DNA of 64,000 bases from Actinomycetes bacterium (GTDB lineage Bacteria; Actinomycetota; Actinomycetes; S36-B12). The position numbers and the translations under genes are program-made. Below are positions 5,483 to 55,574 of the stretch, piece after piece. Position 1 is the first letter of the stretch, and every line of letters starts with the position of its first letter. The DNA lies in assembly GCA_037130755.1 (NCBI GenBank), contig JBAXSI010000002.1:111661-175660 (forward strand). Direction: 5' to 3'. The notes beneath the pieces were generated by a model that was not told the DNA's origin, did no database searches, and was given only the letters and a program-made list of their open reading frames with translations.

Positions 5483-5581
5483 GCCGGGCCTCCGATCGGT
5501 AGTCGAAGTGTCACCTTGGGGTCTGCACTTCGCGTCCAGAATGACACGATCGGACCGGTTTGGGCGGTCGATGCGCTCCGT

Positions 5582-20216: not shown

Positions 20217-20633
20217 TTAGCGCACGAGCCAGCGCACGATGTCGAACTCGGTGACGATTCCGACGAGGCGATCACGGTCGTCGAGGACCGGTACGGCCTC
20301 GATCGCGTTCTCGGCCATGATGCGTGCCGCGACGATGGGCGACTGCATCGGCTTTGCGGAGACGAGGGGAACCATCGCCATGACCTCGCTGACCTTGCGC
20401 TTCCCGAGGTTCTCGGCCGTCGCGGGAACTTCCGCGAGGATGTTGCGGTCGCTGAGCACGCCCATGCAGGCGCCGTCCTCGTTGATGACGACCAGGTGGC
20501 GCAGCCCCGAGACGAACAGCAACTGCCAGGCATCCCAGAGCGACTCTGAGACTTCCACCGTGAGCACCGGGTTGGACATGACGTCCGCGATCAGGATGTC
20601 CTTGTGAGAGTCCAGCAGTTCGGCAGCAGTCAT
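20217..20633 (-). CDS. CBS-pair domain protein
   Basis: Two CBS repeats (VMSNPVLTVEVSESLWDAWQLLFVSGLRHLVVINEDG and VPLVSAKPMQSPIVAARIMAENAIEAVPVLDDRDRLVGIVT). Confidence 0.8.
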   Translation of the reverse strand: MTAAELLDSHKDILIADVMSNPVLTVEVSESLWDAWQLLFVSGLRHLVVINEDGACMGVLSDRNILAEVPATAENLGKRKVSEVMAMVPLVSAKPMQSPIVAARIMAENAIEAVPVLDDRDRLVGIVTEFDIVRWLVR

Positions 20634-21535
20634 GCGGCGCTCCTTTCTGGCTCAAGCGGTGGAACGACCACGACGGGACGCTGCGACTTGTGAAGGATGC
20701 CGTTGCTGACCGAGCCCAGCAGGGCTCCCATGGCCGGTCCGTGACCGTGCTTGCCCACCACCACGATGGCCGCTCGGTCGGACGCTTCGAGGATCGCCTG
20801 AACAGCAGGCGCCCGGACCAGTCGCTCCTCGACGTCGACGTCGGGGTAGTCGGCGCGAAAACCAGCGAGCACCTCGGCGGTCAGGCGGATCTCCTCGTCG
20901 GCCACGTTGCTCAGCGGCACGGGGACCGGACCGTTCGGCACGATCAGGAGGTCATAGGCGGGGACGTCCCACGCGTGCACGGCGACGATGCGCAGGCCGC
21001 GTCGGCTTGCCTGGTCGAACGCGAAAGCGAGAGCCGACTCGACCGCGGGCGATCCGTCGATCCCGACGACCACGGTGTCGCCGTCGTTGCCCGAGCCCTC
21101 GCGAATGACTCCGACCGGGCATTGCGCGTGCGCGGCGATCTGCGAGCTCACCGAGCCCAGCAGCAAGCCCTTGAACCCGCCGCGGCCACGCGATCCGACG
21201 ACGACGAGGCAGGCGGTCTCGGAGGCCTCGAGCATCACCGCGCTGGGCGAGCCGACTGCGACGCGAGTGCGCGCATGCGGTTGGCCGACGCTGATCGCCT
21301 GGGCCTCCAATTGCTCGTGCGCCTGCAGTTCCAGTTCGTCGAGAAGATCGAGGCTGGGCGGCAGGCTGACGCCGAGGCCGCCGGTCGCAACCGGCGGCAG
21401 GAGTGCGTGGACCAAGGTGAGTTCGCGACCGAGCACGCGGGCCTGATCGGCCGCCCACGCCGCCGCGGCACTGGCCGACGGCGACCCGTCAAACCCCACG
21501 ACGACGCGATCGGTGAAGGCGTCCCCGTCGGTCAT
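20630..21535 (-). CDS. Tandem universal stress protein (two Usp domains)
   Basis: RVVVGFDGSPSASAAAAWAA, LVVVGSRGRGGFKGLLLGSVS, then a second copy VVVGIDGSPAVESAL, VVVGKHGHGPAMGALLGSVS. Confidence 0.85.
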   Translation of the reverse strand: MTDGDAFTDRVVVGFDGSPSASAAAAWAADQARVLGRELTLVHALLPPVATGGLGVSLPPSLDLLDELELQAHEQLEAQAISVGQPHARTRVAVGSPSAVMLEASETACLVVVGSRGRGGFKGLLLGSVSSQIAAHAQCPVGVIREGSGNDGDTVVVGIDGSPAVESALAFAFDQASRRGLRIVAVHAWDVPAYDLLIVPNGPVPVPLSNVADEEIRLTAEVLAGFRADYPDVDVEERLVRAPAVQAILEASDRAAIVVVGKHGHGPAMGALLGSVSNGILHKSQRPVVVVPPLEPERSAA

Positions 21536-21711
21536 GGGGACAGCATGGCCTCCCCGGTCGGTGCAAGGGATGGGGAGACAGACCCCGAGGGCAGGGACCT
21601 AAGTCCCCATCTTGTTCAGGTTTGACGGTCTGCGGTGTCGGGTCTTTTGGATTCCCTGCCCCTACAATTCGCCCAACGGGTGGACATGTCGAAGATCGTG
21701 GAGAGGTCAAC

Positions 21712-24639: not shown

Positions 24640-25647
24640 GTGACGGGGCCAGTGGGTTTCGTTCGCGGGCTTCGACGTCCTGAGGCGTTCCATGGCTCCG
24701 GCGTCGCCAAGGGCTTCTTCGAGGGCTGGTACATCAAGCTCGTGTCCGCCGACCGAACGCAGCGCTGGGCGGTGATCCCCGGGATCTTCCGCGGCCTGGA
24801 GCAGCCGGGCCAGCCGCCGCGAGACGAGGCGTTCGTCCAGGTGCTCAACGGCTCAACGGGGGAGTCCTGGTATCACGTCTATCCCACGCACGACTTCGTC
24901 GCCTCGAGTGAGACGTTCGACGTCTCGGTTGGTGGCAACCGCTTCTCGCCCTCGGGTGTCACGTTGGACCTGCCGCAGCTCACGGGGCGCATCTCCTTCA
25001 CCAGCCCCATGGATCCTTGGCCGGTGACGTGGCGCTCGCCGGGGATCATGGGCTGGTACGGACTCGTGCCCTTCATGGAGTGCTACCACGGCGTCGTCTC
25101 CTTCGGCCACGGTCTGGCGGGCACCATCGAGGTACTCGGCACGGCCGAGTCGTTCGACGGCGGTCGCGGGTATCTCGAAAAGGATTGGGGCAAGGCATTC
25201 CCTGCGGGCTACGTGTGGATGCACAGCAACCACATCGACGCCGATCCGGACGCCAGCCTGGTCGCGTCGGTGGCGATCATCCCCTGGCTGCGCAGTTCGT
25301 TCCGCGGCTTCATCGTCGGCCTCAAGCATCAGGGCCACCTGTACCGCTGGGCGACCTACAACGGCGCGAAGGAACTCGACCTGGTGATCGACGACTCCCA
25401 TGTGCGCTGGGCCCTGACAGGGCCCGACGGGGTCCTGAAGCTGTCTGCCGAGCGGGTCCGCGGCGGCCTCCTGCACGCCCCCTTGCGCACCGCCATGCAC
25501 CAGCGAGTCGAGGAGACCATGGACGGCCGGGTGAGCGTCATCCATGAGGACGCCCACGGCCGGGTCCTTCTGTCCGGCGAGGCCACCTGCGCGGGCATGG
25601 AGGTCTTCGGGGAGATCGACCGGCTCCTGGCCACCGGCTCCCGCTAG
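24640..25647 (+). CDS. Tocopherol cyclase-like protein
   Basis: N-terminal FFEGWYIKLVS motif (FFEGWYF[KR] in VTE1/slr1737-type cyclases). Size of about 335 aa. Family assignment is by motif only. Confidence 0.55.
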   Translation: MTGPVGFVRGLRRPEAFHGSGVAKGFFEGWYIKLVSADRTQRWAVIPGIFRGLEQPGQPPRDEAFVQVLNGSTGESWYHVYPTHDFVASSETFDVSVGGNRFSPSGVTLDLPQLTGRISFTSPMDPWPVTWRSPGIMGWYGLVPFMECYHGVVSFGHGLAGTIEVLGTAESFDGGRGYLEKDWGKAFPAGYVWMHSNHIDADPDASLVASVAIIPWLRSSFRGFIVGLKHQGHLYRWATYNGAKELDLVIDDSHVRWALTGPDGVLKLSAERVRGGLLHAPLRTAMHQRVEETMDGRVSVIHEDAHGRVLLSGEATCAGMEVFGEIDRLLATGSR

Positions 25648-27406: not shown

Positions 27407-29445
27407 GCGAGCCGAAGGGCCGGGCCCCGCTCGGGCAGCGCATCAACCTGAGCGCGATCGACAACGCCTCCTGGATTCTGTCGGTCGGCATCCTCGCGGT
27501 GGTCATCCCCGCCAGCGACAAGATCGCCTCGAACGACGTCTTCTTCGCCGCGCACGGCGTGTCTCCGGTCGCCTGGATCGTCCTGCTGGTCGCCGGCCTG
27601 ATCGTCGTCTGGCTCGTGCTTGCAGGGATCCTCGGCCTGCTCCGTCGATGGCTGCCGGCTCGCGGCTTCGACATCGTGGCGTCGATCCTGATGCTGCTGA
27701 TCACCTGGTTCTTCGTCGGCAACGTCCTTGCGCGGACTGTGTTCGCTGCCAACCCGAACCTGGGCCCGATCGCCGGCCTCGTCGTCGCGGTGCTCATCAC
27801 GCTGGCCGCGCGTCGGTTCCACATGGGCTCGGCGCTGTTCGTGTTCGCCTCGATCGCGGCTGCCATTCCGCTGGTCATGACCGTGTGGAACGGCGCCCAG
27901 ACCCCGGCGACGACTGCCTTCGACTTCTCGTCCACGACCCCGCCGTCGGTCCTCTATGTCATCTCCGACGAGCTCCAGTACCCGTTGGCCTTCAACGCCA
28001 AGGGCGAGGTGCGGCCTGAGCTGCCGAACCTGCGCGCGCTCTCCGACACCGCGACCAGGTACACGCACGCCTATGCCGGTGCGAACTACACCGACTGGGC
28101 CGTGCCCGCGCAGCTGACCGGCATCTCCGATGTCGCGGGGCAGGGCAATCAGCGGATGGACAAGGTGCGGGCCGGCCTGGGGATCGTGCCGGGCATGTCC
28201 GGCACGTACTCGATCGTGATGCAGTCGCCGATCTTCCAGTTCGAGTGCAAGGAGGCGGGCTGCGCCAGCGTCGGATCCGATCCGGGGGTGGGCGCGATCG
28301 AGCGCTACTGGTCCTTCGCCAAGGACACCGCCGCCATCGCGGGCAAGACCGCTCTCGCCGAGCCGTTCGCCAGCTACTTCCCGTCCCTGGACGGCAAGTG
28401 GAAGGACTTCTGGAGCGGTGGCGACGAGTTCGGCAACGGCGCGGAGGGCAATTCGGTCGACAAGGCCATCGCCGGGATCGCGGCCTCGGTCAAGCAGTAC
28501 CCGGAGACCCCGTTCTTCGCCTTCTGGCACACGATTCGCACCCACGCACCCTGGGCGGTCGACGGCCAGGGCCGTGACCTCTACCCCGCTCGACTTCCAG
28601 TTGTCGAGGGCTCGCACATGGTCGGGACGGACAAGGACGGGAAGTTCTCCACCCAGGACCTGCAGTACCTCGAGCGACGTCTGTACGCCGACTCGGCGAT
28701 CGACTTCGACCGGCAGTTGGGCAAGATCCTCGACGAGCTGAAAGCGACCGGGCGCTTCGACAACACGATGATCGTCGTCACCGCGGATCACGGGGCGACG
28801 ACGGGCATGACGGCCGACCGCCGATTCGGCGACACGCTTGCCCAGCGCTGGGGCGAGGTCGCGCATGTCCCGCTCGTCATCAAGTACCCCGGCCAGACCT
28901 CGAGCGACGTGGTCACCGGCGTCCGTTCGACCGGCCAGATCGCCCAGACCGTGCTCAACACGGTCGGCGGGACCGTGACCGACGGACTCAAGCTCTCGCC
29001 CGACCTCACCAAGGACCTGCCCGGCGGCCCGGTCTTCACGACGGTGGCCGGGGGAGTCATGACGCCTTGGAAGTACGCCGGCGTCAAGGAGCCCAATCCC
29101 TGGCGGCAGGAGGATGTCGCGCCGCCGAACCCTGCGTACCCCTTCGCCATCGACGTTGACCCGGCGCAACTTAGCAAGGTGGTACCGGCCGGTGCGAAGC
29201 GGATGTCGACCGTGTCGATCAACGCGCTTCCCGGCCAGTCGGACCAGCAGGTCCTCGTCGTGACGCGGACGCCGGGAGAGTGCCCCAGCGACGAGTCGCC
29301 CAGTCTGGTGACCTCAGGCGACACCGTCATCGGCGCTGTGCTCTGGGAGAAGACGACCGGCACCGGTTCCTCGAACGCGCGAGGGTGGGCCATCGTCCCC
29401 AAGTCCGATCCGACGTCCTACCGGGTCTACTGCAGCGCCTCCTGA
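27382..29445 (+). CDS. LtaS/EptA-like membrane transferase (alkaline-phosphatase/sulfatase superfamily)
   Basis: About five N-terminal TM helices, then an extracytoplasmic domain with VLYVISDELQYP, WHTIRTHAPW, MIVVTADHG. It lacks the C/S-x-P-x-R sulfatase motif. An alternative GTG start at 27403 overlaps the upstream stop (GTGA). Confidence 0.75.
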   Translation: MGPAGSLVSEPKGRAPLGQRINLSAIDNASWILSVGILAVVIPASDKIASNDVFFAAHGVSPVAWIVLLVAGLIVVWLVLAGILGLLRRWLPARGFDIVASILMLLITWFFVGNVLARTVFAANPNLGPIAGLVVAVLITLAARRFHMGSALFVFASIAAAIPLVMTVWNGAQTPATTAFDFSSTTPPSVLYVISDELQYPLAFNAKGEVRPELPNLRALSDTATRYTHAYAGANYTDWAVPAQLTGISDVAGQGNQRMDKVRAGLGIVPGMSGTYSIVMQSPIFQFECKEAGCASVGSDPGVGAIERYWSFAKDTAAIAGKTALAEPFASYFPSLDGKWKDFWSGGDEFGNGAEGNSVDKAIAGIAASVKQYPETPFFAFWHTIRTHAPWAVDGQGRDLYPARLPVVEGSHMVGTDKDGKFSTQDLQYLERRLYADSAIDFDRQLGKILDELKATGRFDNTMIVVTADHGATTGMTADRRFGDTLAQRWGEVAHVPLVIKYPGQTSSDVVTGVRSTGQIAQTVLNTVGGTVTDGLKLSPDLTKDLPGGPVFTTVAGGVMTPWKYAGVKEPNPWRQEDVAPPNPAYPFAIDVDPAQLSKVVPAGAKRMSTVSINALPGQSDQQVLVVTRTPGECPSDESPSLVTSGDTVIGAVLWEKTTGTGSSNARGWAIVPKSDPTSYRVYCSAS

Positions 29446-29464
29446 CGCCTCGCGAATCTGCTGT

Positions 29465-29480
29465 GGGCCACCTGTGGCCC
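29465..29480 (+). terminator. Possible stem-loop terminator after the transferase gene
   Basis: gggcca-cctg-tggccc, a perfect 6-bp GC-rich stem 20 nt after the stop. There is no T-tract, so this is weak. Confidence 0.3.
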
Positions 29481-29580
29481 GCCTGAAGACCTTTCTCTGG
29501 GGGACCTTCGGCACTTAGTACAGGTCTACACATAAAGGACCGTCATCCCCCAGTGCTTGACCCTTCAATTGGGAGGTCCC

Positions 29581-29745
29581 GTGATCGCGAGTTCGGTTCT
29601 TGCAGTGGCCGAGAATCCGCCCCCGTATCTGTCTGTGGGCGTCTTCTCGGTGTCTGTGCCCAACGCCATCATCATCGGAGTCATGCTGGCCCTGTTCGTC
29701 CTGGCCATCGTCGTTCCCTTCCCCAAGGACAAGGACCAGTCATGA
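29581..29745 (+). CDS. Small single-TM protein (54 aa from GTG), first gene of the cytochrome b module
   Basis: gggagg RBS at 29571-29576. TM segment NAIIIGVMLALFVLAIVVPF. The stop overlaps the ATG of the next gene (ATGA at 29742-29745). Confidence 0.55.
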   Translation: MIASSVLAVAENPPPYLSVGVFSVSVPNAIIIGVMLALFVLAIVVPFPKDKDQS

Positions 29746-30431
29746 CAATGACCGATCCTGAGACGAGCACGAGTGCTGCCGAGAATGACATGTGGACCGC
29801 GAAACTGAGGCGGTCGTGGGAGAAGAACCTCCCGCCGGACAAACTGCTGCCGGACCGTCAACCGGCCTATGTGGCCTCGTGGATCTACGTCTTCGGCGTG
29901 GCGACCATCGCCGCACTTGTCGTGGTCTTCGCCAGCGGCTTGGTGCTCACCCTCGAAGGCCCCTCGTGGTACCACGTGTCGTCCGTCGGCCTCTTCGTGA
30001 ACAGCCTCCACTTCTGGAGCGTCCAGCTGTTCTTCATCTTCATGGTGGTCCACCTGTGGGGGAAGTTCTGGATGGCCGCCTGGCGCGGTCGCCGGGCAAT
30101 GACCTGGATCACCGGGGTCGTCTGCTTCCTGGGCTCGGTGGGCACCGCCTTCACCGGCTACCTGATCCAGAGCAACTTCGACTCCCAGTGGATCGCCAGC
30201 GAGGCCAAGGACGGCCTGAACGCGGTTGGTATCGGCGCCTTCTTCGACACCGAGAACTACGGCCAGGCACTCCTCCTGCATGTGGCCTTCCTGCCGCTGG
30301 TCGTCGGCTTCATCGTCATCATCCACGTCCTGCTCGTCCGTAAGCATGGCGTCGTGCCGCCGCTCGACTATGCGGAATCAGCGGCCGGTCAAGAGGCCGC
30401 TGCGGCCGCGAACGCGGAGGTGAGCAACTGA
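29742..30431 (+). CDS. Dihaem cytochrome b, b6-like N-terminal-domain-only protein
   Basis: Four TM helices. Helix B has a His pair spaced x13 (SLHFWSVQLFFIFMVVHLWGKFW) and helix D a His pair spaced x14 (LLHVAFLPLVVGFIVIIHVL), the b6/Bacillus-type spacing. Confidence 0.8.
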   Translation: MTMTDPETSTSAAENDMWTAKLRRSWEKNLPPDKLLPDRQPAYVASWIYVFGVATIAALVVVFASGLVLTLEGPSWYHVSSVGLFVNSLHFWSVQLFFIFMVVHLWGKFWMAAWRGRRAMTWITGVVCFLGSVGTAFTGYLIQSNFDSQWIASEAKDGLNAVGIGAFFDTENYGQALLLHVAFLPLVVGFIVIIHVLLVRKHGVVPPLDYAESAAGQEAAAAANAEVSN

Positions 30432-31405
30432 TGGCGACGCACACGTCCACCGTGAACGTCGACGCCCTGCCGTGGAAGGGGCCATGGCGCAGGTACGACA
30501 TCATCAAGGAGGGTGTCGCCGCGATAGTGATCATCAGCATCCTCACGGCACTCCTCGCGGCGATCTTCAGCTCCCCTGACTCGAAGGCGATCACCTTCAA
30601 GGAATGGGCGACCGCATCCCCGGAGGCCTTCGCGGCCACCGCGGTGCAGGAGCTTGCCGGGACGAGTGGGTCGGCCACCTACGGCCCGCCGTACAACTCC
30701 GCCAGCGACGGTCTCAACGTCGGACCGCTGTACCTGCAGAAGTGGGCTGGCGTGAGCCACCCGCTCGACCCGGTGAACTCGTTCGTCATCGAGCCGCTTC
30801 GGTCGCTGCCACCGTCTACGGACGTCACTGCGGCACTGGCGGCGTGGGACAAGGCGACACCTGACCAGCAGGCCGCTTGGGCGACCGCCCTGGACACAGC
30901 GATCGCCGACGCTACTGCCGAGGACGGCAGCATCGACATGTCCACGGTCGCCGCGGGCGACTACGGTCCGGTGCCGGTCCTGGCCGCAGGACTGCTCGCA
31001 ATGGCTAAGTCCGGCGCTCTCGACGGCGTACTGAAGTCGGGTGACACGTTCTTCGCCACCGATACGACAAACCAGTTGATGTTCCTGGGTGATGGCACCT
31101 ACCTCGAGGACGCGGCCGTGGCCAACCACCTCGGCGGCGGCCAGTGGGGCATGATGAACGAGACGGGACCGTTCCCGGGCCAGGCATGGCTGTGGCTGTA
31201 CTCGTTCTGGTACCAGATCCCGCCCTTCAGCGATGAAGAGCAGCAGCCGTTCGGCGCCAACGCCGATGCGTATATCTGGGTGATCATGGGGCTGCTCTCG
31301 CTCATCTTGATGCTCCTGCCGTTCATCCCCGGTCTTCGTTCGATCCCGCGATGGATTCCGATCCATCGCCTGATCTGGCGGGACTACTACCGCAGGGTTC
31401 GCTGA
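30431..31405 (+). CDS. Membrane protein partner of cytochrome b (possible subunit IV analogue with large extracytoplasmic insert)
   Basis: The ATG shares one base with the upstream TGA. N-terminal TM (GVAAIVIISILTALLAAIF), a soluble domain of about 230 aa, then a C-terminal FWYQIPPF motif followed by the TM helix YIWVIMGLLSLILMLLPFIP. Compare EWYFFPVF of PetD as I recall it. Confidence 0.65.
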   Translation: MATHTSTVNVDALPWKGPWRRYDIIKEGVAAIVIISILTALLAAIFSSPDSKAITFKEWATASPEAFAATAVQELAGTSGSATYGPPYNSASDGLNVGPLYLQKWAGVSHPLDPVNSFVIEPLRSLPPSTDVTAALAAWDKATPDQQAAWATALDTAIADATAEDGSIDMSTVAAGDYGPVPVLAAGLLAMAKSGALDGVLKSGDTFFATDTTNQLMFLGDGTYLEDAAVANHLGGGQWGMMNETGPFPGQAWLWLYSFWYQIPPFSDEEQQPFGANADAYIWVIMGLLSLILMLLPFIPGLRSIPRWIPIHRLIWRDYYRRVR

Positions 31406-31482
31406 CCCTACGTGTGCTGGGTGCCGATCCGCCGTTGCTGGCGGGCCGGCACCCAGCGCGCTTTCGGACCTACGATGAAGCG

Positions 31483-32532
31483 ATGAGCAGGCACGCACGA
31501 CCGTTCGGCCTGGTCGTCATTCTGACTGCGGTGCTTGGCCTCTTGGCTATTGCGCCCGCCGTGGCACGTCCGGGCCAGCCGGTCCCGCCGGTCCCGCCGG
31601 TGTCGCCTTCTGATGGCGCAGCGGCGCTGGCCCAGGCCCCCGCCCCGGACACGCTCGCCGGGCTCTACTCGACGACGAGCATGGACTTGATCCTGCTCGA
31701 GCGTCGCAAGGGGCCTGCTGCAGCGCTCAAGGCTCTGGAGCGCCGAATCGAGAAGGATGGCCGACTCGGCGGCGTGTGCCACGCGATCGCCCACGAGATC
31801 GGTCACGAGGCGCTGACCGAGGCCGGCGGCAACGTCAGCAAGGCGCTCACGAACCGCAATGACGTGTGTGGTGGCGGCTACACGCACGGCATCATCGAGG
31901 TGGCCCTCGGCTCGTCGAAGCATCCGGCCAAGGACCTGCTCGTGGTCTGCGCTCCCAAGCAGGACGGATCCTGCTTCCACGGCGTCGGGCACGGACTGAT
32001 GTTCGCGACGGGAATGGACCTGGCGCGCTCACTGCGACTGTGCGACAAGTCGCCGACCTCGATGCTCGTGGCACGATGCGGCGAGGGCGTCTTCATGCAG
32101 TTGTTCGGCGCGGACGCCAGTACCGCGCATCTCGGCGGCGCGAGCCCGCCCACTCTCGCCAGCGCCCGTACGACGTGCCGCGGAACGCGCGCCCGGTATG
32201 CGGCGAACTGCTGGTTCTACGCCCCCACGGTCTGGCTCGCCGCCCGCCCCGACGACTTCACCGGGGCGATGGGCTGGTGCTCGGCCGCGGGAAGCACCCT
32301 TGGCGCCCAGCTGTGCGCCAAGGGAGTCGGCAGCCGAACGATCAAGTACCACCCGGACGACCCGCGCATCGGCGCGGCCGTCTGCGCGGCGTCCGGGGAC
32401 CTCACCGACCCGTGCCTGTCGGGCATGGGGTCTTACTGGTCGGTGCACTTCAAGGGCCAGAAGCCGCCCAGCGACGTCTGCGGCCACCTGGGCTCCGCGG
32501 CACTGGCGACCCGGTGCCGGGCGGTCACCTGA
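31483..32532 (+). CDS. Secreted Cys-rich repeat protein with HEIGH motif
   Basis: Signal peptide MSRHARPFGLVVILTAVLGLLAIAPAVA, PVPPVPPVSP linker, 14 Cys. Repeated C-x2-G units (VCHAIAHEIGHEA, VCGGGYTHGIIE, SCFHGVGHGLMF, RCGEGVFMQLF, NCWFYAPTVW, LCAKGVGSRT, PCLSGMGSYW). Confidence 0.7.
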   Translation: MSRHARPFGLVVILTAVLGLLAIAPAVARPGQPVPPVPPVSPSDGAAALAQAPAPDTLAGLYSTTSMDLILLERRKGPAAALKALERRIEKDGRLGGVCHAIAHEIGHEALTEAGGNVSKALTNRNDVCGGGYTHGIIEVALGSSKHPAKDLLVVCAPKQDGSCFHGVGHGLMFATGMDLARSLRLCDKSPTSMLVARCGEGVFMQLFGADASTAHLGGASPPTLASARTTCRGTRARYAANCWFYAPTVWLAARPDDFTGAMGWCSAAGSTLGAQLCAKGVGSRTIKYHPDDPRIGAAVCAASGDLTDPCLSGMGSYWSVHFKGQKPPSDVCGHLGSAALATRCRAVT

Positions 32533-32541
32533 CCCTTCGGG

Positions 32542-34347
32542 CTACTTGTCGTCGGTGTCCTGCTCCGCGTCGAAGGCCTCCTTGGCCCGCTCGAGGTCCT
32601 GATCGCTGCGCAGTGCGCGCAGCTGGCTGGTGGAGTCGACCTCCTCGCCGCTCTCCAGGTCGAGTGCGGACATGCCGGGGGGCAGGTTCGACAGGTCGGG
32701 TGCGATGACCAGGTCAGGAAGGCCCGCGTCCGGCATACGGACCGTCTCCTCCTCGAACACCGAGCCCGCAAGGATCAGCTCGGAGTGGGAGCGCTGGGAA
32801 AGCGTCTCGCCGCGGAAGAAGGCCGGCGCGATGCGCGACCAGACGATCATCAGGATGGCTCCCACCAGCAGCGTGCCGATACCGATGACGAACACTCCTC
32901 CCACGCCCCACAGCGTCGTGCTGCCGTAGTCGGGCTGGGCGTACTGGTAGCAGGCGATGACGAACGCACCGAGCAGCATGGTTCCGCCCAGCAGCGGGAA
33001 CAGGAACTTCATGAAGAAGCCGTCGACGCTCTTGAACGCCGAGTGGCGGTAGAACCAGACCGCGGCGAAGCCCGTGAGTCCGTAGTAGAAGGCGATCATC
33101 AGGCCAACGGCGGCGATGGAGTCGCCCAGCACGTTCTCGCTGACCAGGGTCAGTCCGACGTAGAAGATGATCGACACCAGGCCCATCCAGACGGTGGCAG
33201 TCGTCGGGGTCAGGTACCGGGGATGGATACGCGCGAAGTAGGGCGGGATCGCCTTGTAGGCGCCCATGGCCAGCGCCGTCCGCGCCGTCGGCAGGATGGT
33301 CGTCTGCGTTGAGGCCGATGCGGACGAAAGGACGGACAGGATGAGCAGAGTTTCGAGGATCTTGCCGATGCCGGAGTCTCCGAAGACGGACGGTCCGAGT
33401 GCGTTGAAGACGTCGCTGGAGTTCTCCGGGTTCGCCAGACCGAGATCGGCCTCGCCCACGCCCGCGAAGGCTACGGTGGCGACGCTGACGATCGCGTAGG
33501 TGAGTAGCAGCAACAGGGTCGAGATGATGGCCGCTCGCCCGGGGGTCTTCTCCGGGTTCGAAGTCTCCTCGTTGATGCTGACGGCGGTGTCCCAGCCCCA
33601 GTAGATGAAGACGGCGATCAGCGTGGCCGTGACCAGGGCGCTCAGCGAGATCCCGGACGGCCACAGCCAGGACAGCTCCGGCGTCAGCGACTCGGGGGTC
33701 GCATTGCCGCTGTAGACCTTGGTGAGTGCGATCACGGAGAAGATCACGAGGACCACGATCTCGATGCCCAGTAGTGCGTACTGCAGCCGAGCCGAGACCT
33801 CGATGCCGCGGTAGCAGATATAGGTCATGACGATGATCCAGGCGACTCCGGCGACCATGCTCCAGAACGTCGATGCAGCGAGCCCGTCCAGGCCGAAGAG
33901 CTGGAAGCCGTATGACCCGGCGATCTGCGCGAGGTTCGCCATGACGATGACGTCGGCCGCGATGATGCCCCAGCCGCCTATCCACCCGGCCCACGGGCCG
34001 AACGCGCGCGTCGCCCACGTGAATGTCGTGCCGCAGTCCGGCTCGGCCCTGTTCAACTGCTGGTAGGCGATGGCGATGAAGAACATCGGCACGAAGGCGA
34101 GCAGCATGATCGACGGGGCCTTGACTCCGACGATGCCGTCGCCGTTCTGCGTCGCGACGACGAACCCGAGGCTCGCGGCGAGGCTGTAGGCGGGCGCGGT
34201 CGAGGCCATGCCGACGACGATGCTCGACACCAGCCCCAAGGCCCCGGTCTTGAGTCCCTTCTCGCCGGCCACCTCCGGGAAGCCGATGGGGGCCTGGGTC
34301 TCCTGCTGCGCCATGGCGACTCCGTCCGAGGTCGAGTCCGTTCGCAT
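32542..34347 (-). CDS. APC-superfamily amino acid/polyamine permease with about 100-aa acidic cytoplasmic tail
   Basis: About 12 TM helices, and GLVSSIVVGMASTAPAYS and FTWATRAFGPWAGWIGGW blocks typical of APC transporters. Confidence 0.8.
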   Translation of the reverse strand: MRTDSTSDGVAMAQQETQAPIGFPEVAGEKGLKTGALGLVSSIVVGMASTAPAYSLAASLGFVVATQNGDGIVGVKAPSIMLLAFVPMFFIAIAYQQLNRAEPDCGTTFTWATRAFGPWAGWIGGWGIIAADVIVMANLAQIAGSYGFQLFGLDGLAASTFWSMVAGVAWIIVMTYICYRGIEVSARLQYALLGIEIVVLVIFSVIALTKVYSGNATPESLTPELSWLWPSGISLSALVTATLIAVFIYWGWDTAVSINEETSNPEKTPGRAAIISTLLLLLTYAIVSVATVAFAGVGEADLGLANPENSSDVFNALGPSVFGDSGIGKILETLLILSVLSSASASTQTTILPTARTALAMGAYKAIPPYFARIHPRYLTPTTATVWMGLVSIIFYVGLTLVSENVLGDSIAAVGLMIAFYYGLTGFAAVWFYRHSAFKSVDGFFMKFLFPLLGGTMLLGAFVIACYQYAQPDYGSTTLWGVGGVFVIGIGTLLVGAILMIVWSRIAPAFFRGETLSQRSHSELILAGSVFEEETVRMPDAGLPDLVIAPDLSNLPPGMSALDLESGEEVDSTSQLRALRSDQDLERAKEAFDAEQDTDDK

Positions 34348-38448: not shown

Positions 38449-38517
38449 CGAGAAGATGGTCGCGCGGCCGTGCCAGACTGAGTCCTGCTCGCAGTGATTC
38501 TTGAGGGGATTCCCAGC

Positions 38518-40026
38518 ATGGCCATGGTCCGCATGAGCGCGCAGGACGCGCTTTGGCTGACCATGGACCGACCCAACAACCTGATGGTCGTGGACGGCGT
38601 CGTGGTCCTCGGTGACGACCTGGACTTCGATGCCTTCCTGGTGAAGTTCGACGAGATGGTTGCGCGATTCCCGGTGCTGTCGAAGCGGCCGGTGCGACAT
38701 CGTGGCAACTGGTGCTGGGAGCCCGATCCGGACTTCGAGATCACCCAGCACGTGTCTGCCGTGACGCTTCCCGCGAGCGCGACGACGCAGTCGCTGCAGC
38801 ACTTCGTTGGCGAGCAGCGGTCGGTGCCGCTCGACAAGGACGGGCCGCTGTGGGCGGCGTTCCTTGTTTCTCCGGTGCACCTGCCCGACGGCAGGGTCGG
38901 CTCGGCGATCGTCACGCGGTTCCATCACGCCATCGCCGACGGGGTTCGGCTCACCCAGATCCTCCTGGGGATGTGCGAGGCCGTCGACGGCACGATGGTC
39001 CCGCTCATCGCCCGCAGCGGCGTCAAGGGTGATGCGCTGAGCCCGATCCAGGCGGCGACGGGCACCGTCGCAGGTATCTCGCGACTGTCGGTCGCTGCCG
39101 CCCAGTCGACGTGGTCGATGGTCGGAAGCGCAACGACCACGGCACGGCAGGTGTCGTCACCCGGTGACGCCCTCGCGACGGCCGGGGCAATCCCGCGCGC
39201 ACTCAAGACAAGGATCGATTCCGGCATTTCCCTCGTGCGCCACCCCGACCACGTGCTGAACGCGTTCGAGGACGCGGGGGGTCCCGCACACCGGTCGATC
39301 AACGATATGAGCACGCTCACCAAACTGGCGTTCGGTGGCAGCGAGGCCACCGTGTGGACCGGCCTGCCAGGCCTGGAGAAGTCGGTGTCGTGGTCTCCGC
39401 CGCTGCCGCTGGCCGACGTCAAGCGCGCCGCCAAGGAGCACGGAGCAACGGTCAACGACACGCTCGTGGCGGCTGTCGCTGGTGGGCTGCGCCGCTACCT
39501 CGCCGACGAGGGTGCGGCGGTGAGCGAAGTCGTCTGGATGGTGCCGGTCAACCTCAAGCCGTTCGAGGACGAGATCCCCGAGGACCTCGGCAATCACTTC
39601 GCGTTGGTGATGCTGGGCATGCCACTCGATCACGAGTCCTCGGAGGCTCGGCTCGCCGAGATCCACCGCCGCATGCAGCGCATCAAGAACTCCGACGAGG
39701 CGGTCATCACCTTCGGGGTCCAACGGTCGATGTCGATGTCGCCGATGGTCATGGCGGCGTTCGTGACGAACTTCTTCGCCAACAAGGCGATCGGCGTGCT
39801 GACCAATGTCCCCGGCCCGACCGGGCGCATGGCCTTCGCGGGCGCCGACGTCGTGCAGGTCATGGGCTTCGCGCCGTGCTCGGGCAATCAGCCGCTGACG
39901 GCCACGATCTTCACGTACGACGGGAATGTGACGATCGGCTTCGCCGGCGACTCGGCCCTTGTGCCCGACCTGCCACGTTTGGTCGGTCATGTCGTAGCGG
40001 AGGTCCGCGAACTCACCGGGACCTGA
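38518..40026 (+). CDS. Wax ester synthase/diacylglycerol acyltransferase (WS/DGAT)
   Basis: Catalytic HHxxxDG motif (RFHHAIADGVRL), N-terminal DALWLTMDRPNNLM, C-terminal NVPGP block. Start ambiguous among the ATGs at 38518, 38524 and 38533. Confidence 0.85.
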   Translation: MAMVRMSAQDALWLTMDRPNNLMVVDGVVVLGDDLDFDAFLVKFDEMVARFPVLSKRPVRHRGNWCWEPDPDFEITQHVSAVTLPASATTQSLQHFVGEQRSVPLDKDGPLWAAFLVSPVHLPDGRVGSAIVTRFHHAIADGVRLTQILLGMCEAVDGTMVPLIARSGVKGDALSPIQAATGTVAGISRLSVAAAQSTWSMVGSATTTARQVSSPGDALATAGAIPRALKTRIDSGISLVRHPDHVLNAFEDAGGPAHRSINDMSTLTKLAFGGSEATVWTGLPGLEKSVSWSPPLPLADVKRAAKEHGATVNDTLVAAVAGGLRRYLADEGAAVSEVVWMVPVNLKPFEDEIPEDLGNHFALVMLGMPLDHESSEARLAEIHRRMQRIKNSDEAVITFGVQRSMSMSPMVMAAFVTNFFANKAIGVLTNVPGPTGRMAFAGADVVQVMGFAPCSGNQPLTATIFTYDGNVTIGFAGDSALVPDLPRLVGHVVAEVRELTGT

Positions 40027-44339: not shown

Positions 44340-44450
44340 GGCGGAAACCTATAAGGCCGGGCCTTCCAGCGCTCGATTGGTGGCCTAAGGTCCCGGGACT
44401 GGGGACAAACGCCCGATGAGGGCATTTGGGGCAGATGCGAGGATGTTCCG

Positions 44451-45881
44451 GTGACACTCTCCGTCGTAGTCGTGGGCAGCGGCATCAGTGGCCTCTCCAC
44501 GGCCTACTACCTGCGCCAACTGCTCGGCGACGATGCGGCGGTCACCGTGCTCGATCAGGCCCCGGCCCCGGGCGGCAAGATCCGGACGCGGACCTTCGCC
44601 GGCCTTCCGGTCGACACCGGTCCCGACGCCTTTCTCTCCCGCGCGCCGCAGCTCAAGGCGCTCATCGAGTCCCTCGGGCTGTCCGACCAGGTCGTCGGCC
44701 CGGCGGCCAGCGGAGCGTTCATCTGGTCCAAGGGCGCACTGCGTCCGCTGCCTTCGGGTGCCACCTTCGGCCTGCCGGAGAAGTTCCTGCCCCTGGTGCG
44801 CAGCGGTCTGATCTCGATGCCCGGCGCCCTGCGCGCCGCGATGGACGTCGTCCTGCCGCGCACGAAGCGGTCCGACGACCCGACGGTGGAGGAGCTCGTG
44901 AGCCCTCGACTGGGCAGCGAGGTCTTCGACCGCATGGTGGAGCCCCTGCTCGGCGGGGTGCACGCCGGGAGTGCCACGGTGCTCAGCGCGAAGAGCACGG
45001 TGCCAGAGATCGTGGCGATGACGAGCGGCAAGCGCAGCATCATCATGGCGATGCGCGGTCGCAAGAAGCCTCCGCCGCCCGTGCCCGGCACCAAGCCGAC
45101 TCCTCCGCTGGTCACCGTCTCCGGCGGGATGACGCGTCTCACGGAGGCGCTGGTCGCCGCGATCGGACCGGAGAACGTCCTGTCGGGCGTGCGGGTCACT
45201 GGCCTGTCGCCTCGCGACGGCGACGGATGGACGATCGCCACCGACAGCGGCCGGCTCATCGCAGACCATGTCGTCCTCGCGACGCCTGCGTATGCCGCCG
45301 CTGACCTCGTTGCTCCACTCGATGCCGCGCTGCCCGGCCTGCTCCGGTCGATCCCCTATGTCGACACGGCGGGCGTGGTGCTGGCATTCCGTCGCTCGGA
45401 GATCCCCGCGCTCCCGGAGGGCACCGGATACCTGGTGCCGCCGATCGAGGGCGAGCTCATCGTCGGCAGCACATGGCTGACCAGCAAGTGGCCCTACCTG
45501 GTCAACGACGACGTCGTGGTCATCCGCAGCCTGGTCGGCCGCTACGGCGACACCCGCTTCATGACGATGACCGACGAGGAGCTCGTCGACGCCGTGCGCG
45601 AGGCACTCGGTCGCACCGTCGGCATCGAGGCCGCTCCGATCGAGCGGCTCGTGCAGCGCTGGCCCGCCGCGATGCCTCAATACGTGGTCGGCCACGCCGA
45701 CCGCCTCGAGCGGATCGACGCTGCGCTCGAGCAGCACCCAGGACTCCATCTCACCGGGGCCGCCTACCGCGGTGTCGGGCTGGCCGGCTGCGTGGCACAG
45801 GGCCACGCACTGGCGACAGCAATCGCCCAGGAATCGATTGCGGACGCGTCTGGATCGATTTCGGAAGGAAGCCAACGATGA
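44451..45881 (+). CDS. hemY: Coproporphyrinogen III / protoporphyrinogen oxidase (HemY/CgoX)
   Basis: FAD dinucleotide fold VVVVGSGISGLSTAYYL, C-terminal LHLTGAAYRGVGLAGCV. Sits in a heme cluster together with hemQ. Confidence 0.85.
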   Translation: MTLSVVVVGSGISGLSTAYYLRQLLGDDAAVTVLDQAPAPGGKIRTRTFAGLPVDTGPDAFLSRAPQLKALIESLGLSDQVVGPAASGAFIWSKGALRPLPSGATFGLPEKFLPLVRSGLISMPGALRAAMDVVLPRTKRSDDPTVEELVSPRLGSEVFDRMVEPLLGGVHAGSATVLSAKSTVPEIVAMTSGKRSIIMAMRGRKKPPPPVPGTKPTPPLVTVSGGMTRLTEALVAAIGPENVLSGVRVTGLSPRDGDGWTIATDSGRLIADHVVLATPAYAAADLVAPLDAALPGLLRSIPYVDTAGVVLAFRRSEIPALPEGTGYLVPPIEGELIVGSTWLTSKWPYLVNDDVVVIRSLVGRYGDTRFMTMTDEELVDAVREALGRTVGIEAAPIERLVQRWPAAMPQYVVGHADRLERIDAALEQHPGLHLTGAAYRGVGLAGCVAQGHALATAIAQESIADASGSISEGSQR

Positions 45882-47026
45882 CCTCCACCAGCGTGACCCG
45901 TCCTCGGGTCCTCGACTACAACCAACGGCCCATGCTGGTGTTCTGGGAGGTCACTCGGGCCTGCCTGCTGGCCTGTCACCACTGCCGCGCGTCAGCCACG
46001 CCCGGGGCACTCCCCGGCGAGTTGAACCTGGCGGAGGGCCGGGACCTGATCGACCAGGTCGCGGGCTTCGGTCGGCCGTACCCGATCCTCGTGCTGACGG
46101 GTGGTGACTGCCTCCTGCGCCAGGACATCTTCGAGCTCGTCGAGTACGCAAACGGCCAGGGCATCCCGGTTGCCATGTCGCCGTCGGTCACGCCGCAGCT
46201 GACCCCCGAGGCCATTCAGCACATGGTCGACAGCGGCGTGAAGGCTGTGTCGTTGAGCCTCGACGGAGCCAACGCGGCGACCCACGACGGAGTCCGCGGC
46301 ATCCCCGGCCACTTCGACAAGACCATCCCTGCCATTCGCGCGCTCGTGGATGCCGGACTCACCGTCCAGATCAACACCACGGTGATGAGCCGCAACAAGA
46401 GCGAGATGGCCGACATCGCGGCGATCGTCCAGGACACCGGCGCCGATATCTGGGAGGTGTTCTTCCTGGTGCACGTCGGCCGCGGTGAGGACACCGACTC
46501 CATGACTCCCGACGAGCACGAGGAGATGTGCCACTTCCTCGTCGATGCCTCTCACTACAACTTCATCGTGCGCACCGTCGAGGCGCCGTTCTTCCGCCGT
46601 GTCGTCGTCGAGCGTCGCGAGCATCCTGACCGCAAGCCCGACGGCGCCCTCTACCGCTCTCTGGTCGCTCAGTTGGAGGCCGAACTGGGTGAGCCCAACG
46701 TGAAGTCGTCGGCCCACACGGCGGCAACGCGTGACGGCAAAGGCATCGTCTTCGTGGCGCATGACGGACAGGTGTACCCGGCTGGGTTCCTGCCGCTGTC
46801 GCTCGGCTCCGTGCGCGACCTGCCGCTGGCAGACATCTATCGCGACAACCCCGTGCTGCGCAGGATTCGCTCGATGGAGTTCGGCGGCCGTTGCGGTTAC
46901 TGCGACTTCGCGGACCTGTGCGGTGGATCGCGTGCGCGCGCGTTCGCGTCGACGGGCGACCCGCTAGCTGAGGACCAGGCCTGCGCCTACCAGCCGCCCG
47001 CGAAGCTTGCAGGTGTCAACGAGTAG
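45878..47026 (+). CDS. Radical SAM/SPASM protein, AhbD/NirJ-like
   Basis: CLLACHHC (CxxxCxxC) cluster motif, LTGGDCLLRQD, SLSLDGANAATHDGVRG, C-terminal SPASM Cys motif CGYCDFADLCGG. The ATG overlaps the hemY stop (ATGA at 45878-45881). Confidence 0.8.
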   Translation: MTSTSVTRPRVLDYNQRPMLVFWEVTRACLLACHHCRASATPGALPGELNLAEGRDLIDQVAGFGRPYPILVLTGGDCLLRQDIFELVEYANGQGIPVAMSPSVTPQLTPEAIQHMVDSGVKAVSLSLDGANAATHDGVRGIPGHFDKTIPAIRALVDAGLTVQINTTVMSRNKSEMADIAAIVQDTGADIWEVFFLVHVGRGEDTDSMTPDEHEEMCHFLVDASHYNFIVRTVEAPFFRRVVVERREHPDRKPDGALYRSLVAQLEAELGEPNVKSSAHTAATRDGKGIVFVAHDGQVYPAGFLPLSLGSVRDLPLADIYRDNPVLRRIRSMEFGGRCGYCDFADLCGGSRARAFASTGDPLAEDQACAYQPPAKLAGVNE

Positions 47027-47028
47027 GA

Positions 47029-47286
47029 ATGTGCGGCGATCGCCTCCAGAAGGAAGGCAGCAAGCCCGTGCCCACGACGAGGTTGAGCCTGATCAAAGTC
47101 GGGGCCCTGGCGATGACGCGAGCGGCACTGGGTCTTGGAGTCGGCCTGCTCATTGCCGATCGATTGGATGGCGGGACGCGAAGGGCCCTCGGCGTGACCT
47201 TGCTCGGCGTTGGGGTCGTCGCAACAGCACCGGTGGTCGTGTGGATCGTGAAGGGCATCGATTCGCCGGACGTGCCCGTCCAATGA
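47029..47286 (+). CDS. Small membrane protein (two TM)
   Basis: Starts 2 nt after the radical SAM stop. Hydrophobic segments ALGLGVGLLIA and LLGVGVVATAPVVVWIV. Confidence 0.5.
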   Translation: MCGDRLQKEGSKPVPTTRLSLIKVGALAMTRAALGLGVGLLIADRLDGGTRRALGVTLLGVGVVATAPVVVWIVKGIDSPDVPVQ

Positions 47287-47290
47287 CTTC

Positions 47291-48553
47291 TTAGAAAGGC
47301 GGCGGGTCGTGGTCGTATCGGCGGCCCTGCAGGGAGCGCCACGTACAACTGCCGTCGGCCCGACTCACGGTGATCTGCCAGCTGCCATGGCTCTTGAGTT
47401 GATGGTGTCGGGTACACAGTGCGCCGAGGTTCAGCGGGCTGGTGTGGCCGCCGTCGTCCCACGCGATGGCGTGATCGATCTGGCACCGGTCGGCTCGGCG
47501 CCGACAGCCGGGAAAGCGGCACACCTTGTCGCGTGCGACGACGAAATCGCGCAGGGCTTGAGGTACCGCGTAGGTTCGGCGGCCGTAGTCCAGCAGGTGC
47601 CCGGAAAGCGGATCGGTGACCAGGCGGCGCATCGTCACCGCGACGTCCGGATCGGCGAGCAGGTCGCGCACCGCTGCGGCCGAAACTGGCCCGGACCCGC
47701 GCAACTCGGCGATGCCAGAGTCGGCAGGTGAGCTGTCAATGCTCGCGTCGCGCAGGGCAGCGAGCGTGGGCAGGTCGATCACGACATCGATATGAGCCTG
47801 GATCGTGGCGTCGGGCGACGTCGCGCCACCCAGCACTGCCGCAGCCAAGGCGTGGACCCGATGCTCGCCGATCGTCCACGACCCTGACTCCGGCGTGGCG
47901 GCGGCTGCGGACCTGGTTGTCTTGGCGGCCCTCATGATCTCAGCCATGACAGCGTGGGCGTGCTCGGTGGTCATGCGCGCCGAGAGGGTCGAGATGCCGT
48001 CGAGCTCGTCGACGACCCACACATCGCGAGTGCATCGGGCGCGCTCCCGCCGCCGCTGTTCGCCCGCGGCGTCGATGGCGAGGACCGCGCGCTTGGCGGC
48101 CTGGCGGGTCATCGACAGGGTTCCCCGCCGGGCGACGGGGAGCACTCGCCGCATTAGTTCGGCGCATGCCGTGGCGAACGTCTCGGCGTCTTCACCCGCC
48201 TCCGCCCAACGGCCGGGGAGTCGCTGAGCTACCTCGGTCAAGATGCGGGCATGCTGCGCGGTGATCTCCCCGCTCCGCAGGCAGTCGAGGACCGCGCGAA
48301 GTGGGCCGACGAGAAGACGGGCGTCGTCGATTCGTGCCTGCGCCGTTGGGGGCGCCCACCGCAGTGCAGCCGCGACTTCCTCCCTGACCGCGTCCTCGAT
48401 CCTGATGCTTCGCTCGTCGTCGCGGTCGGTGCCCAGAATCAGGTACTCGTCCACGTGGGGCTTGGACGAGGCGACGTCGACGAGCACCTCGGCCTGGCGG
48501 GCGTAGAGCCCAGCCAGTTGCCGCTCGATGTCTTGCAGTGCCGCTATCGACAT
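47291..48553 (-). CDS. DUF222/HNH endonuclease (13E12-repeat-type)
   Basis: C-terminal HNH CRFPGCRRRADRCQIDHAIAWDDGGHTSPLNLGALCTRHHQLKSH, plus the long helical N-terminal region typical of DUF222. Confidence 0.85.
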   Translation of the reverse strand: MSIAALQDIERQLAGLYARQAEVLVDVASSKPHVDEYLILGTDRDDERSIRIEDAVREEVAAALRWAPPTAQARIDDARLLVGPLRAVLDCLRSGEITAQHARILTEVAQRLPGRWAEAGEDAETFATACAELMRRVLPVARRGTLSMTRQAAKRAVLAIDAAGEQRRRERARCTRDVWVVDELDGISTLSARMTTEHAHAVMAEIMRAAKTTRSAAAATPESGSWTIGEHRVHALAAAVLGGATSPDATIQAHIDVVIDLPTLAALRDASIDSSPADSGIAELRGSGPVSAAAVRDLLADPDVAVTMRRLVTDPLSGHLLDYGRRTYAVPQALRDFVVARDKVCRFPGCRRRADRCQIDHAIAWDDGGHTSPLNLGALCTRHHQLKSHGSWQITVSRADGSCTWRSLQGRRYDHDPPPF

Positions 48554-48626
48554 GCCCTCACTCTAGGGAGGGGGTCTGACATCCAGACGGCTAGAAAACC
48601 CTTATCCACAAAGGGATTATCTGGAA

Positions 48627-50410: not shown

Positions 50411-50437
50411 CTGTTCTCCTCGTGCCGGATGCGGCGG

Positions 50438-51496: not shown

Positions 51497-51626
51497 CCGG
51501 TCACGTTAGCAGGAGGTAAGAACACGCGCCCGTGGCGGAACTGTTGCCTCTGAAGGACGTTTGCCGACGCACTGACGGTCTTTGGTCATCCTTGCGCGGC
51601 CTCGGCGGCTGTTAGCATCCCTGATC

Positions 51627-55573: not shown

Positions 55574-55574
55574 C

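Follow-up and report, generated by a model that had tools for sequence, protein, structure and literature searches.

The locus studied here lies in a 64,000-nucleotide (nt) stretch of an Actinomycetes bacterium genome (contig JBAXSI010000002.1), which we call the window and which has a base composition of roughly 66 to 70% G+C. Within it, a small operon encodes a cytochrome b6-like subunit together with a membrane protein of a family that carries no functional label. An earlier reading of this DNA, made from the sequence alone, had described four plus-strand open reading frames (ORFs) at positions 29581-32532, joined in part by ATGA and TGATG overlaps, as a split cytochrome b6-like module that is an orphan, with neither a Rieske nor a cytochrome c partner. 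The four ORFs are present as that reading stated, and we refer to them as g1 to g4 (Table 1). In the following, we describe the unit that these genes form, the relation of g3 to subunit IV of the cytochrome b6f complex, and the regulatory sequences upstream of g1, and we then weigh what the encoded complex may do. The conservation of g1, a set of natural gene fusions, and a DevR/OsdR-type box upstream of the operon are additions to the sequence-only reading.

A conserved unit of three genes

Relatives of g3 were sought by scanning one genome per species. Matches came from 599 bacterial species at the least, and almost all of these are Actinomycetota. For the comparison of gene neighborhoods we used the 80 closest loci, all from Actinomycetota, together with one metagenome locus (81 loci in all), a set in which distant taxa are undersampled. 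The 80 loci include members of the Actinomycetes (Streptomyces, Kitasatospora, Amycolatopsis, Actinoplanes, Nakamurella, Blastococcus, and Nanopelagicales) as well as Acidimicrobiales, Solirubrobacterales, and Gaiellaceae. Carriers that can be cultivated are among them, for instance Amycolatopsis orientalis DSM 43388, Kitasatospora cystarginea, and Pengzhenrongella phosphoraccumulans. Across these classes of Actinomycetota, g2 lies directly 5′ of g3 in 81 of 81 loci, a linkage far beyond chance. A homolog of g1 was found in 50 of the 81 loci by tblastn and in 75 of the 81 when it was recognized by its motif plus a transmembrane segment. The genes are also found fused, with gene order always kept: g2 is joined to g3 in P0079 and P0128, g1 is joined to the N terminus of g2 in P0213, and all three are joined in P0127. 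Co-occurrence across genomes, on which the sequence-only reading had staked its proposal of a gene quartet, is therefore seen for g1, g2, and g3, and the quartet shrinks to a unit of three.

The most divergent g3 that we traced is 28% identical to that of the window and is encoded on a contig of 27% G+C. At locus L086 (positions 4312-5951 of a 29-kb contig with 27% G+C; ENA ERZ27237454), a 39-aa gene, a 205-aa cytochrome b that keeps all four His residues, and a 316-aa g3-like protein follow one another in the same order; given this base composition, the family extends outside typical high-GC Actinomycetota. The L086 module adjoins rpsF-ssb-rpsR and secDF, and the end of its g3-like gene shares bases with an ORF for a 122-aa membrane protein.

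The fourth gene does not share this pattern of conservation. The g4 product is a secreted or anchored protein without a Pfam match, and the sequence-only reading had counted it as a fourth component. One could accordingly imagine a four-gene system whose redox partner on the extracytoplasmic side is this Cys-rich protein, perhaps in the role of a thiol/disulfide client: g4 follows g3 after 77 nt on the same strand, its product has an N-terminal signal or anchor as well as 14 Cys, and it keeps its place in an 86%-identical relative (L082). That locus, however, is the only close relative in which g4 stands beside the module, whereas it does so in 0 of the 81 loci. Moreover, 138 g4 homologs were found against more than 6000 for g3, their genomic contexts are varied and unrelated, and those at 51 to 65% identity lie in three unrelated neighborhoods without g2 or g3. 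As a general feature, a role for g4 in the system is largely refuted, and we give such a partnership very little credence; g4 is a neighbor of the module and not a component.

The g2 product has four transmembrane helices and scores above the Pfam gathering thresholds of both PF13631 (52.5 bits against a cut-off of 27; E 7.4e-14) and PF00033 (27.7 bits against 27.2; E 3e-6). Its closest relatives of solved structure are the cytochromes b6 of b6f complexes (PDB; E from 5.5e-10, for 1q90_B, to 1.4e-8). The two bis-His pairs attributed to it earlier are confirmed, with H90 and H104 separated by 13 residues and H180 and H195 by 14, which is the b6-type spacing. Among NCBIfam models, the best match is ExtP (NF040969) with 49.5 bits against a cut-off of 290, followed by cytochrome b6 (PRK03735) with 48.6 bits against 325 and actinobacterial QcrB (NF050120) with 21.9 bits against 500. 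Because the ExtP and b6 scores are nearly equal and far exceed that of QcrB, and because all three fall far below their cut-offs, these profile comparisons place g2 in a separate b6-like subfamily and indicate that it is not a copy of the resident QcrB.

In 80 members of the g2 family, the four heme His residues, glycines of helices A and C spaced 14 apart, a WRGR motif after helix B, and a C-terminal VR..GVVPP motif are invariant or nearly so, and the C-terminal VRKxGVVPP resembles the IRKQGISGPL of b6. Helix A (WIYVFGVATIAALVVVFASG) contains no Cys and hence no CxGG site for heme cn, so the covalent heme cn of b6f cannot be present. We also considered a third heme or metal site on the P side, formed by g2 H78 and the His of an "HW" pair in g1, and dropped it since both positions vary: H78 is invariant in the 80 Actinomycetota g2 sequences, yet the 27%-GC relative has a Gln there, and the His in g1 is variable. 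The g1 product itself, predicted to have its N terminus outside and its C terminus inside, bears the motif Y..(W)..(I/V)SVxN(L)...PFP and has no match in Pfam or NCBIfam.

Of the 38 likely window genes that were scanned, none was assigned to a Rieske, cytochrome c, or oxidase family. When all ORFs of the 81 loci were clustered, no further family appeared in more than 15 loci, and there was no recurring Rieske, cytochrome c, or oxidase gene. The description of the module as an orphan thus holds both in the window and in the 81 related loci.

Table 1. Positions of the genes, the upstream box, and the principal protein features in the window
Feature	Position	Strand	Remarks
DevR/DosR/OsdR-type palindrome GGGACCTTCGGCAC	29501..29514		One mismatch; 67 nt before g1 start codon, 244 nt before g1 end
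g1	29581..29745	+	54 aa, one transmembrane helix; GTG start, 6 nt after GGAGG
g2	29742..30431	+	229 aa; ATGA overlap with g1
g2 H90/H104 codons	30009-30011 and 30051-30053	+
g2 H180/H195 codons	30279-30281 and 30324-30326	+
g3	30431..31405	+	324 aa; one-base overlap with g2 (TGATG)
g3 TM1 (aa 24-46)	30500..30568	+	Predicted from hydropathy and AlphaFold2 helix 24-46; conserved SPD next
g3 extracytoplasmic domain (aa 47-239)	30569..31147	+	Predicted all-alpha; conserved YGPPYN, W150, G179-P180
g3 ef-loop conserved segment (aa 240-266), putative PEWY-region equivalent	31148..31228	+	Sequence GMMNETGPFPGQAWLWLYSFWYQIPPF
g3 TM2 (aa 275-298), putative helix F equivalent	31253..31324	+	Invariant P297-F-I-P300-G at end, then basic cytoplasmic tail
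g4	31483..32532	+	349 aa, 14 Cys, N-terminal hydrophobic segment; 77 nt after g3

The g3 protein and its relation to subunit IV

The g3 family comprises more than 6171 homologs, all labeled "hypothetical", which fall into 990 clusters at 50% identity. The sequence-only reading had allowed that profile searches might place g3 in an unrelated, well-characterized family; the window protein had no match in Pfam, NCBIfam, or the sequences of the PDB. Likewise, 23 members compared one by one with Pfam yielded nothing even at E ≤ 5, and a family profile built from the 23 yielded nothing in the PDB. The protein is predicted to have two transmembrane helices (TM1 and TM2) with both termini in the cytoplasm. 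This in-out-in arrangement is supported by the basic residues that precede TM1 and follow TM2 and by the natural fusions, which join the cytoplasmic C terminus of g2 to g3, and it is the same as that of helix E, the ef loop, and helix F in subunit IV (PetD).

Conserved motifs of the family include SPD after TM1, YGPPYN, the long element QWGxxNExGxxPGQxWLWxY..YQIPP, NAD where TM2 starts, PFIPGLRxIPR, and YRLIWRxYY. No Cys, His, or Met is conserved in the family alignment, and g3 therefore has no obvious ligands for heme, iron-sulfur clusters, or copper. With no such residues to hold a redox cofactor, its extracytoplasmic domain (ectodomain) is unlikely to be an electron acceptor itself. When g3 alone was modeled with AlphaFold2 (AF2) from an 80-sequence alignment, the model had a predicted local distance difference test score (pLDDT) of 81 and a predicted template modeling score (pTM) of 0.71. 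The ectodomain in this model is all-helical, with block-mean pLDDT values of about 81 to 97 over residues 51 to 200; the sole internal stretch of low confidence (pLDDT < 50) comprises residues 239 to 245, at the start of the NE..PGQ segment. A Foldseek search of the PDB with the g3 model gave no match (best E 1.8, probability 0.04). As modeled, the ectodomain of some 190 residues is a fold without a solved analog.

The motif FWYQIPPF, which occupies residues 259 to 266 of g3, had been likened in the sequence-only reading to the PEWY region of subunit IV. We compared g3 residues 235 to 324 with four PetD sequences from the PDB using hhalign, with 200 column-shuffled PetD profiles serving as controls. 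The alignment scored 24.8 (P 9.7e-4) and paired g3 residues 240-307 with PetD residues 60-130. Of the shuffled profiles, 0 of 200 reached this score (mean 12.4, standard deviation 2.6, maximum 24.2), and the reversed profile scored 15.8. In the resulting register, the g3 segment NE..PGQAWLWLYSFWYQIPPF falls on the PetD loop segment and LLPFIPG falls on LVPFIEN of helix F, and this test supports the suggested correspondence. The counterpart of PEWY in the window protein reads S-F-W-Y; across the family, Y261 is the sole invariant position, with Pro and Glu absent and Trp not conserved. The spacing from Y261 to P297 is 36 residues in the window protein, about 30 in most relatives, and 32 in PetD.

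A structural comparison was made with the natural fusion P0079, which AF2 modeled from a 90-row alignment with a pLDDT of 74.5 and a pTM of 0.70. Without exception, the 47 best Foldseek matches of this model in the PDB were long cytochromes b from bc1 or bcc complexes, with actinobacterial QcrB on top. The probability was approximately 1.0 for the top 29, E values began at 1.7e-3, and the alignments spanned 323 to 522 columns, all but one exceeding 400.

Several of our results count against a subunit IV relationship. The hhalign probability for the g3-PetD pair is 22%, which marks the relation as weak, and the N-terminal part of g3 gave no signal against PetD, its score being reached by 61 of 200 shuffles. 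Hidden Markov model (HMM) searches of g3 against Pfam and the PDB were empty. The TM-scores of the P0079 matches are low, at 0.22 to 0.26, so just the b6 half superposes. In addition, g3 lacks the hallmarks of subunit IV (PF00032): there is no HMM match and no PxWY, and there are two transmembrane helices instead of the three designated E, F, and G. Weighing these points against the shuffled controls and the shared topology, we consider it very probable that g3 inherited its C-terminal third from the stretch of subunit IV that comprises the PEWY loop and helix F. Residues ~47 to 239 very probably represent an insertion in the ef loop, with helix G missing. TM1 plausibly corresponds to helix E, an assignment that draws on topology and fusion order. 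The P0079 model fits a cytochrome-b-like core with a foreign domain, and it does not by itself prove that the g3 helices occupy the E and F positions.

This ancestry bears on whether the module might simply be an alternative cytochrome b core that uses QcrA and QcrC encoded elsewhere, forming a second, perhaps hypoxia-specific, bc-type complex that runs a normal Q cycle. In its favor, both g2 and g3 are of the cytochrome b/subunit IV lineage. Genomes with several cytochromes b do not always have Rieske genes adjacent to them (PMC5600118), and natural variants of the Qo motif include APWY, GPWY, PPWF, and SxWF (PMC4122944, PMC5600118). However, a Rieske or cytochrome c gene stands beside the module in 0 of 81 loci, the g3 family has lost the Pro and Glu of PEWY and does not conserve the Trp, and helix G is missing. 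Furthermore, the 190-aa domain occupies the very loop that forms the Rieske docking surface. We therefore regard the borrowing of QcrA and QcrC as improbable.

Upstream boxes and genomic surroundings

The OsdR consensus AGGGCCGATCGGCCCT is said to conform to the DevR box of M. tuberculosis (PMC5069765). We searched for the corresponding pattern, GGGMC-N4-GKCCC, in 75 regions upstream of the module and in 2083 control segments from the same loci; a DosR pattern with N8 spacing had given nothing useful, its spacing being wrong, and the N4 form was used instead. Perfect boxes were found in 12 of 75 upstream regions versus 12 of 2083 control segments, and boxes with at most one mismatch in 28 of 75 versus 217 of 2083. 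These sites are also positioned alike, in that 25 of the 28 begin 236 to 290 nt before the end of g1. At the positions aligned with the window box, related loci hold perfect boxes (GGGACCTATGGCCC in L082 and GGGACCAAAGGCCC in L083). In L002 and L026, the region ~60 to 130 nt upstream of g1 holds two DevR/OsdR-like boxes in tandem with a spacing of about 20 nt (for example, GGGACCAAAGTCCC and then AGGGCCACAGACCCC). They resemble the paired boxes found at strong DosR promoters.

Three considerations temper this picture. The box in the window is one mismatch away from the pattern and is not significant alone. A recognizable box is absent from about two-thirds of the loci. Finally, the sharpest enrichment was obtained in an 89-nt fixed-distance interval (at most one mismatch in 27 of 75 loci versus 4.06 ± 1.66, with a maximum of 10, in 300 dinucleotide shuffles; ten perfect boxes versus 0.29 expected), and this interval was picked after the clustering had been seen, which leaves the broad comparison as the cleaner test.

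Elsewhere in the 64 kb, the sole perfect box (GGGACCTAAGTCCC, 21594-21607) lies ~59 nt upstream of a gene for a tandem universal stress protein (20630-21535, minus strand, two Usp domains). Universal stress proteins are classic members of the DosR regulon, and the presence of a perfect box before this gene suggests that the organism has a DosR-like regulon. A box with one mismatch (TGGCCTAAGGTCCC, 44381-44394) is located ~57 nt upstream of the gene that opens a heme biosynthesis cluster, an amine-oxidase-family gene resembling protoporphyrinogen/coproporphyrinogen oxidase (44451-45881, plus strand). In S. coelicolor, OsdR is reported to bind upstream of the protoporphyrinogen oxidase gene (PMC5069765). 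Another one-mismatch occurrence of the pattern, at 38989, falls inside a wax-ester synthase/diacylglycerol acyltransferase (Tgs-like) gene (38494-40026) and is probably due to chance.

Among the 81 loci, the commonest neighbors of the module are NarL-type response regulators, ABC ATPases, zinc alcohol dehydrogenases, and GAF/HisKA_3 kinases, and in Solirubrobacterales loci a Pyr_redox_2 flavoprotein is among the commoner neighbors. A NarL-type regulator and a sensor kinase stand directly upstream of the operon in 5 loci, with a GAF/HisKA_3 kinase in four. Taken together, the boxes before g1, those before the universal stress protein and oxidase genes, and the adjacent NarL-type regulators suggest, without proving it, that many carriers have the module under the control of a regulon for hypoxia or redox stress.

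The same neighbors invite a different view, in which the module is a heme- or quinone-binding membrane sensor or scaffold that reports on redox state, be it that of the menaquinone pool or that of the envelope, or else a protein for the storage or handling of heme, and no electron-transfer enzyme at all. The b6f complex offers a precedent, in that it reports to a state-transition kinase. Two-component systems adjoin the module in several loci, the ectodomain has no cofactor ligands, and no partner enzyme is encoded nearby. On the other hand, the bis-His pairs and packing glycines are invariant from Actinomycetota to the 27%-GC lineage, as would be expected of a working transmembrane electron wire, and the adjacent regulators are more simply explained as regulators of the operon, given the boxes upstream of it. 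A purely sensory, scaffolding, or heme-handling role is thus, in our judgment, unlikely.

According to the Pfam scan, the genes that flank the module in the window are unrelated to respiration. A methyltransferase-like gene and a gene for a 687-aa sulfatase/LtaS-like membrane protein lie on the upstream side, and an opposite-strand amino acid permease gene and a gene for a pyridoxal phosphate-dependent decarboxylase lie downstream. The sequence-only reading had drawn attention to a heme biosynthesis cluster 12 kb from the module. The cluster is real (44451-56876) and of the coproporphyrin-dependent type, encoding a CgoX-like oxidase, ChdC (chlorite-dismutase family), HemE, HemA, HemC, HemD, HemB, and HemL, with a DUF222 gene (47291-48553) interspersed. 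We attach no functional weight to the distance and rejected proximity as a sign of functional linkage, since the arrangement is not kept in related loci. An Rfam scan of positions 29000-33000 revealed no riboswitch or other RNA, and a promoter and terminator scan was uninformative.

Other features of the window and of individual loci are recorded here as observations. Signaling genes, mostly on the minus strand, are unusually dense between positions 36 and 19068; they encode five large PAS/GGDEF/EAL or receiver-GGDEF-EAL proteins (646, 802, 1219, 846, and 1096 aa) alongside a 662-aa multi-PAS histidine kinase. A tocopherol-cyclase-family gene (PF14249) in an actinobacterial context is found at 24640-25647 and also in the 86%-identical L082. 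Some relatives have metal-related genes near the module. In L083 (7137-12996), these encode CopC/CopD and a multicopper oxidase. In L001 (1-2201), they encode VIT1, a Ferric_reduct protein, FMN_bind, and ApbE. Neither association recurs in the 81 loci.

A candidate Rieske-independent conduit for quinol electrons

Based on these observations, we hypothesize that g1, g2, and g3 encode a Rieske-independent split cytochrome b that serves as a menaquinol-linked, di-heme conduit under hypoxia or redox stress, a proposal to which we assign roughly even odds. In such a complex, g2 would be the four-helix b6-type subunit, with two b hemes across the membrane, and g1 would be a peripheral single-helix subunit. 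The g3 protein would derive from subunit IV, with TM1 standing in for helix E, the NE..PGQxWLWxY..YQIPP segment for the PEWY loop, and TM2 for helix F. The helical domain of ~190 residues, which seems to bear no cofactor, would then be set in the ef loop. It would thus lie on the outer face, at the docking place of the Rieske head in bc complexes, and might shape or cap an outer pocket for quinol or substrate.

In the absence of a Rieske center or other high-potential acceptor, a bifurcated Q cycle could not run in this complex. The hemes should still carry electrons across the membrane, because the bis-His pairs are invariant. A non-bifurcating, menaquinol-linked conduit is favored because the module has no Rieske protein, its bis-His pairs are invariant, and the best-conserved part of g3 lies at the presumed outer quinol pocket. 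Electrons would move one way through the two hemes, with the menaquinone pool at one end and, at the other, a partner or substrate that the operon does not encode. A shuttle from quinol on one side to quinone on the other would merely dissipate the proton gradient, and a further partner is therefore required. This other redox partner may be encoded elsewhere or may be a small molecule, and the conduit would operate in a manner analogous to cytochrome b subunits of the NarI type or the Cbc/ExtP type. Expression of the operon would be induced under hypoxia or redox stress through the DevR/DosR/OsdR-type box. Against the proposal stands the lack of any nearby gene for the terminal partner that such a conduit would need.

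A bolder form of this hypothesis is that the module represents a new class of respiratory complex, namely a Rieske-independent descendant of b6 and subunit IV whose outer quinol pocket has been rebuilt by a novel ectodomain, whose expression a DevR/DosR-type regulator switches on, and whose electron acceptor or donor would be novel among bc complexes. We hold this view only tentatively and think it somewhat doubtful. If it is true, Actinomycetota and some other lineages could use the complex to keep the menaquinone pool turning over, or to keep up membrane potential, without oxygen.

Comparison with characterized systems shows which parts of the module are familiar. Cytochrome bc complexes are defined by the pairing of a Rieske protein with cytochrome b and by the Q cycle. 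The PetB-PetD core of the b6f complex and the split cytochrome b of Firmicutes have the same order of a four-helix, di-heme b6 followed by its partner. The likeness to PetB and PetD extends to the H-x13-H and H-x14-H ligands, the C-terminal (V/I)RKxG..P, and the topology, and in g3 as in PetD a first helix leads to an outer loop in which a Tyr is conserved and then to a second helix in which Pro-Phe is conserved. In contrast to b6f, the module comes without genes for a Rieske protein, cytochrome f, or cytochrome c and without the CxGG Cys and heme cn, and it has an extra conserved subunit (54 aa in the window) and upstream DevR-type boxes. Unlike PetD, g3 lacks the Pro and Glu of PEWY and helix G and has a domain of ~190 residues in its ef loop. 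Actinobacterial QcrB, part of the bcc-aa3 supercomplex, belongs to the same superfamily as g2, but it is one long polypeptide whose gene accompanies those for QcrA and QcrC.

Other cytochromes b share the separation from a Rieske protein. Metal-reducing bacteria have PetB-like quinol oxidoreductases that work without a Rieske protein, such as ExtP (NF040969) and the Geobacter Cbc-type complexes. What g2 would have in common with them is the concept of a b6-like subunit through which the quinone pool is connected to a partner other than a Rieske protein. Systems of the ExtP and Cbc type are encoded with multiheme cytochromes c, however, and none was found near the module. In subunits of the NarI and FdnI type, which are encoded with their catalytic partners, two stacked b hemes pass quinol electrons across the membrane without bifurcation; the analogy to the module is functional only, since the fold and family are unrelated. 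The orphan short cytochromes b of cyanobacterial "subfamily K", and other cytochrome b subfamilies of obscure function (Dibrova et al. 2017, PMC5600118), resemble g2 in being short paralogs with no CxGG and no tie to a Rieske gene. Subfamily K has lost one heme-ligand His and is mostly without a subunit IV of its own (PMC5600118), whereas the module keeps all four His and always has a partner subunit, and the lineage differs.

Surveys of cytochrome b cover actinobacterial QcrB, the cyanobacterial orphan short forms, and a small number of split forms from Rubrobacteridae and Acidimicrobidae (PMC4122944, PMC5600118). The module family is not described in these two surveys, and a full-text literature search found no prior published description, in agreement with the earlier suggestion that the system is undescribed. 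What is known, then, is the cytochrome b/subunit IV lineage; what is likely to be new is the architecture, an ectodomain fold without a solved analog, and a mode of action that probably does not involve the Q cycle.

As we interpret it, the module retains a di-heme cytochrome b and a remnant of subunit IV while having dropped the Rieske partner and gained an outer domain. Because the operon is small and self-contained, expression, spectroscopy, cryo-electron microscopy, and knockouts are feasible. If the proposed mode of action is true, the module would show what a cytochrome b core is capable of without bifurcation, and it would provide a natural test case for the evolution of bc complexes. 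Its carriers include freshwater organisms known from metagenome-assembled genomes (Candidatus Nanopelagicales) as well as antibiotic-producing genera. If it is indeed a hypoxia-induced, quinol-linked conduit, it may be a missing piece in how obligately aerobic actinobacteria survive oxygen limitation.

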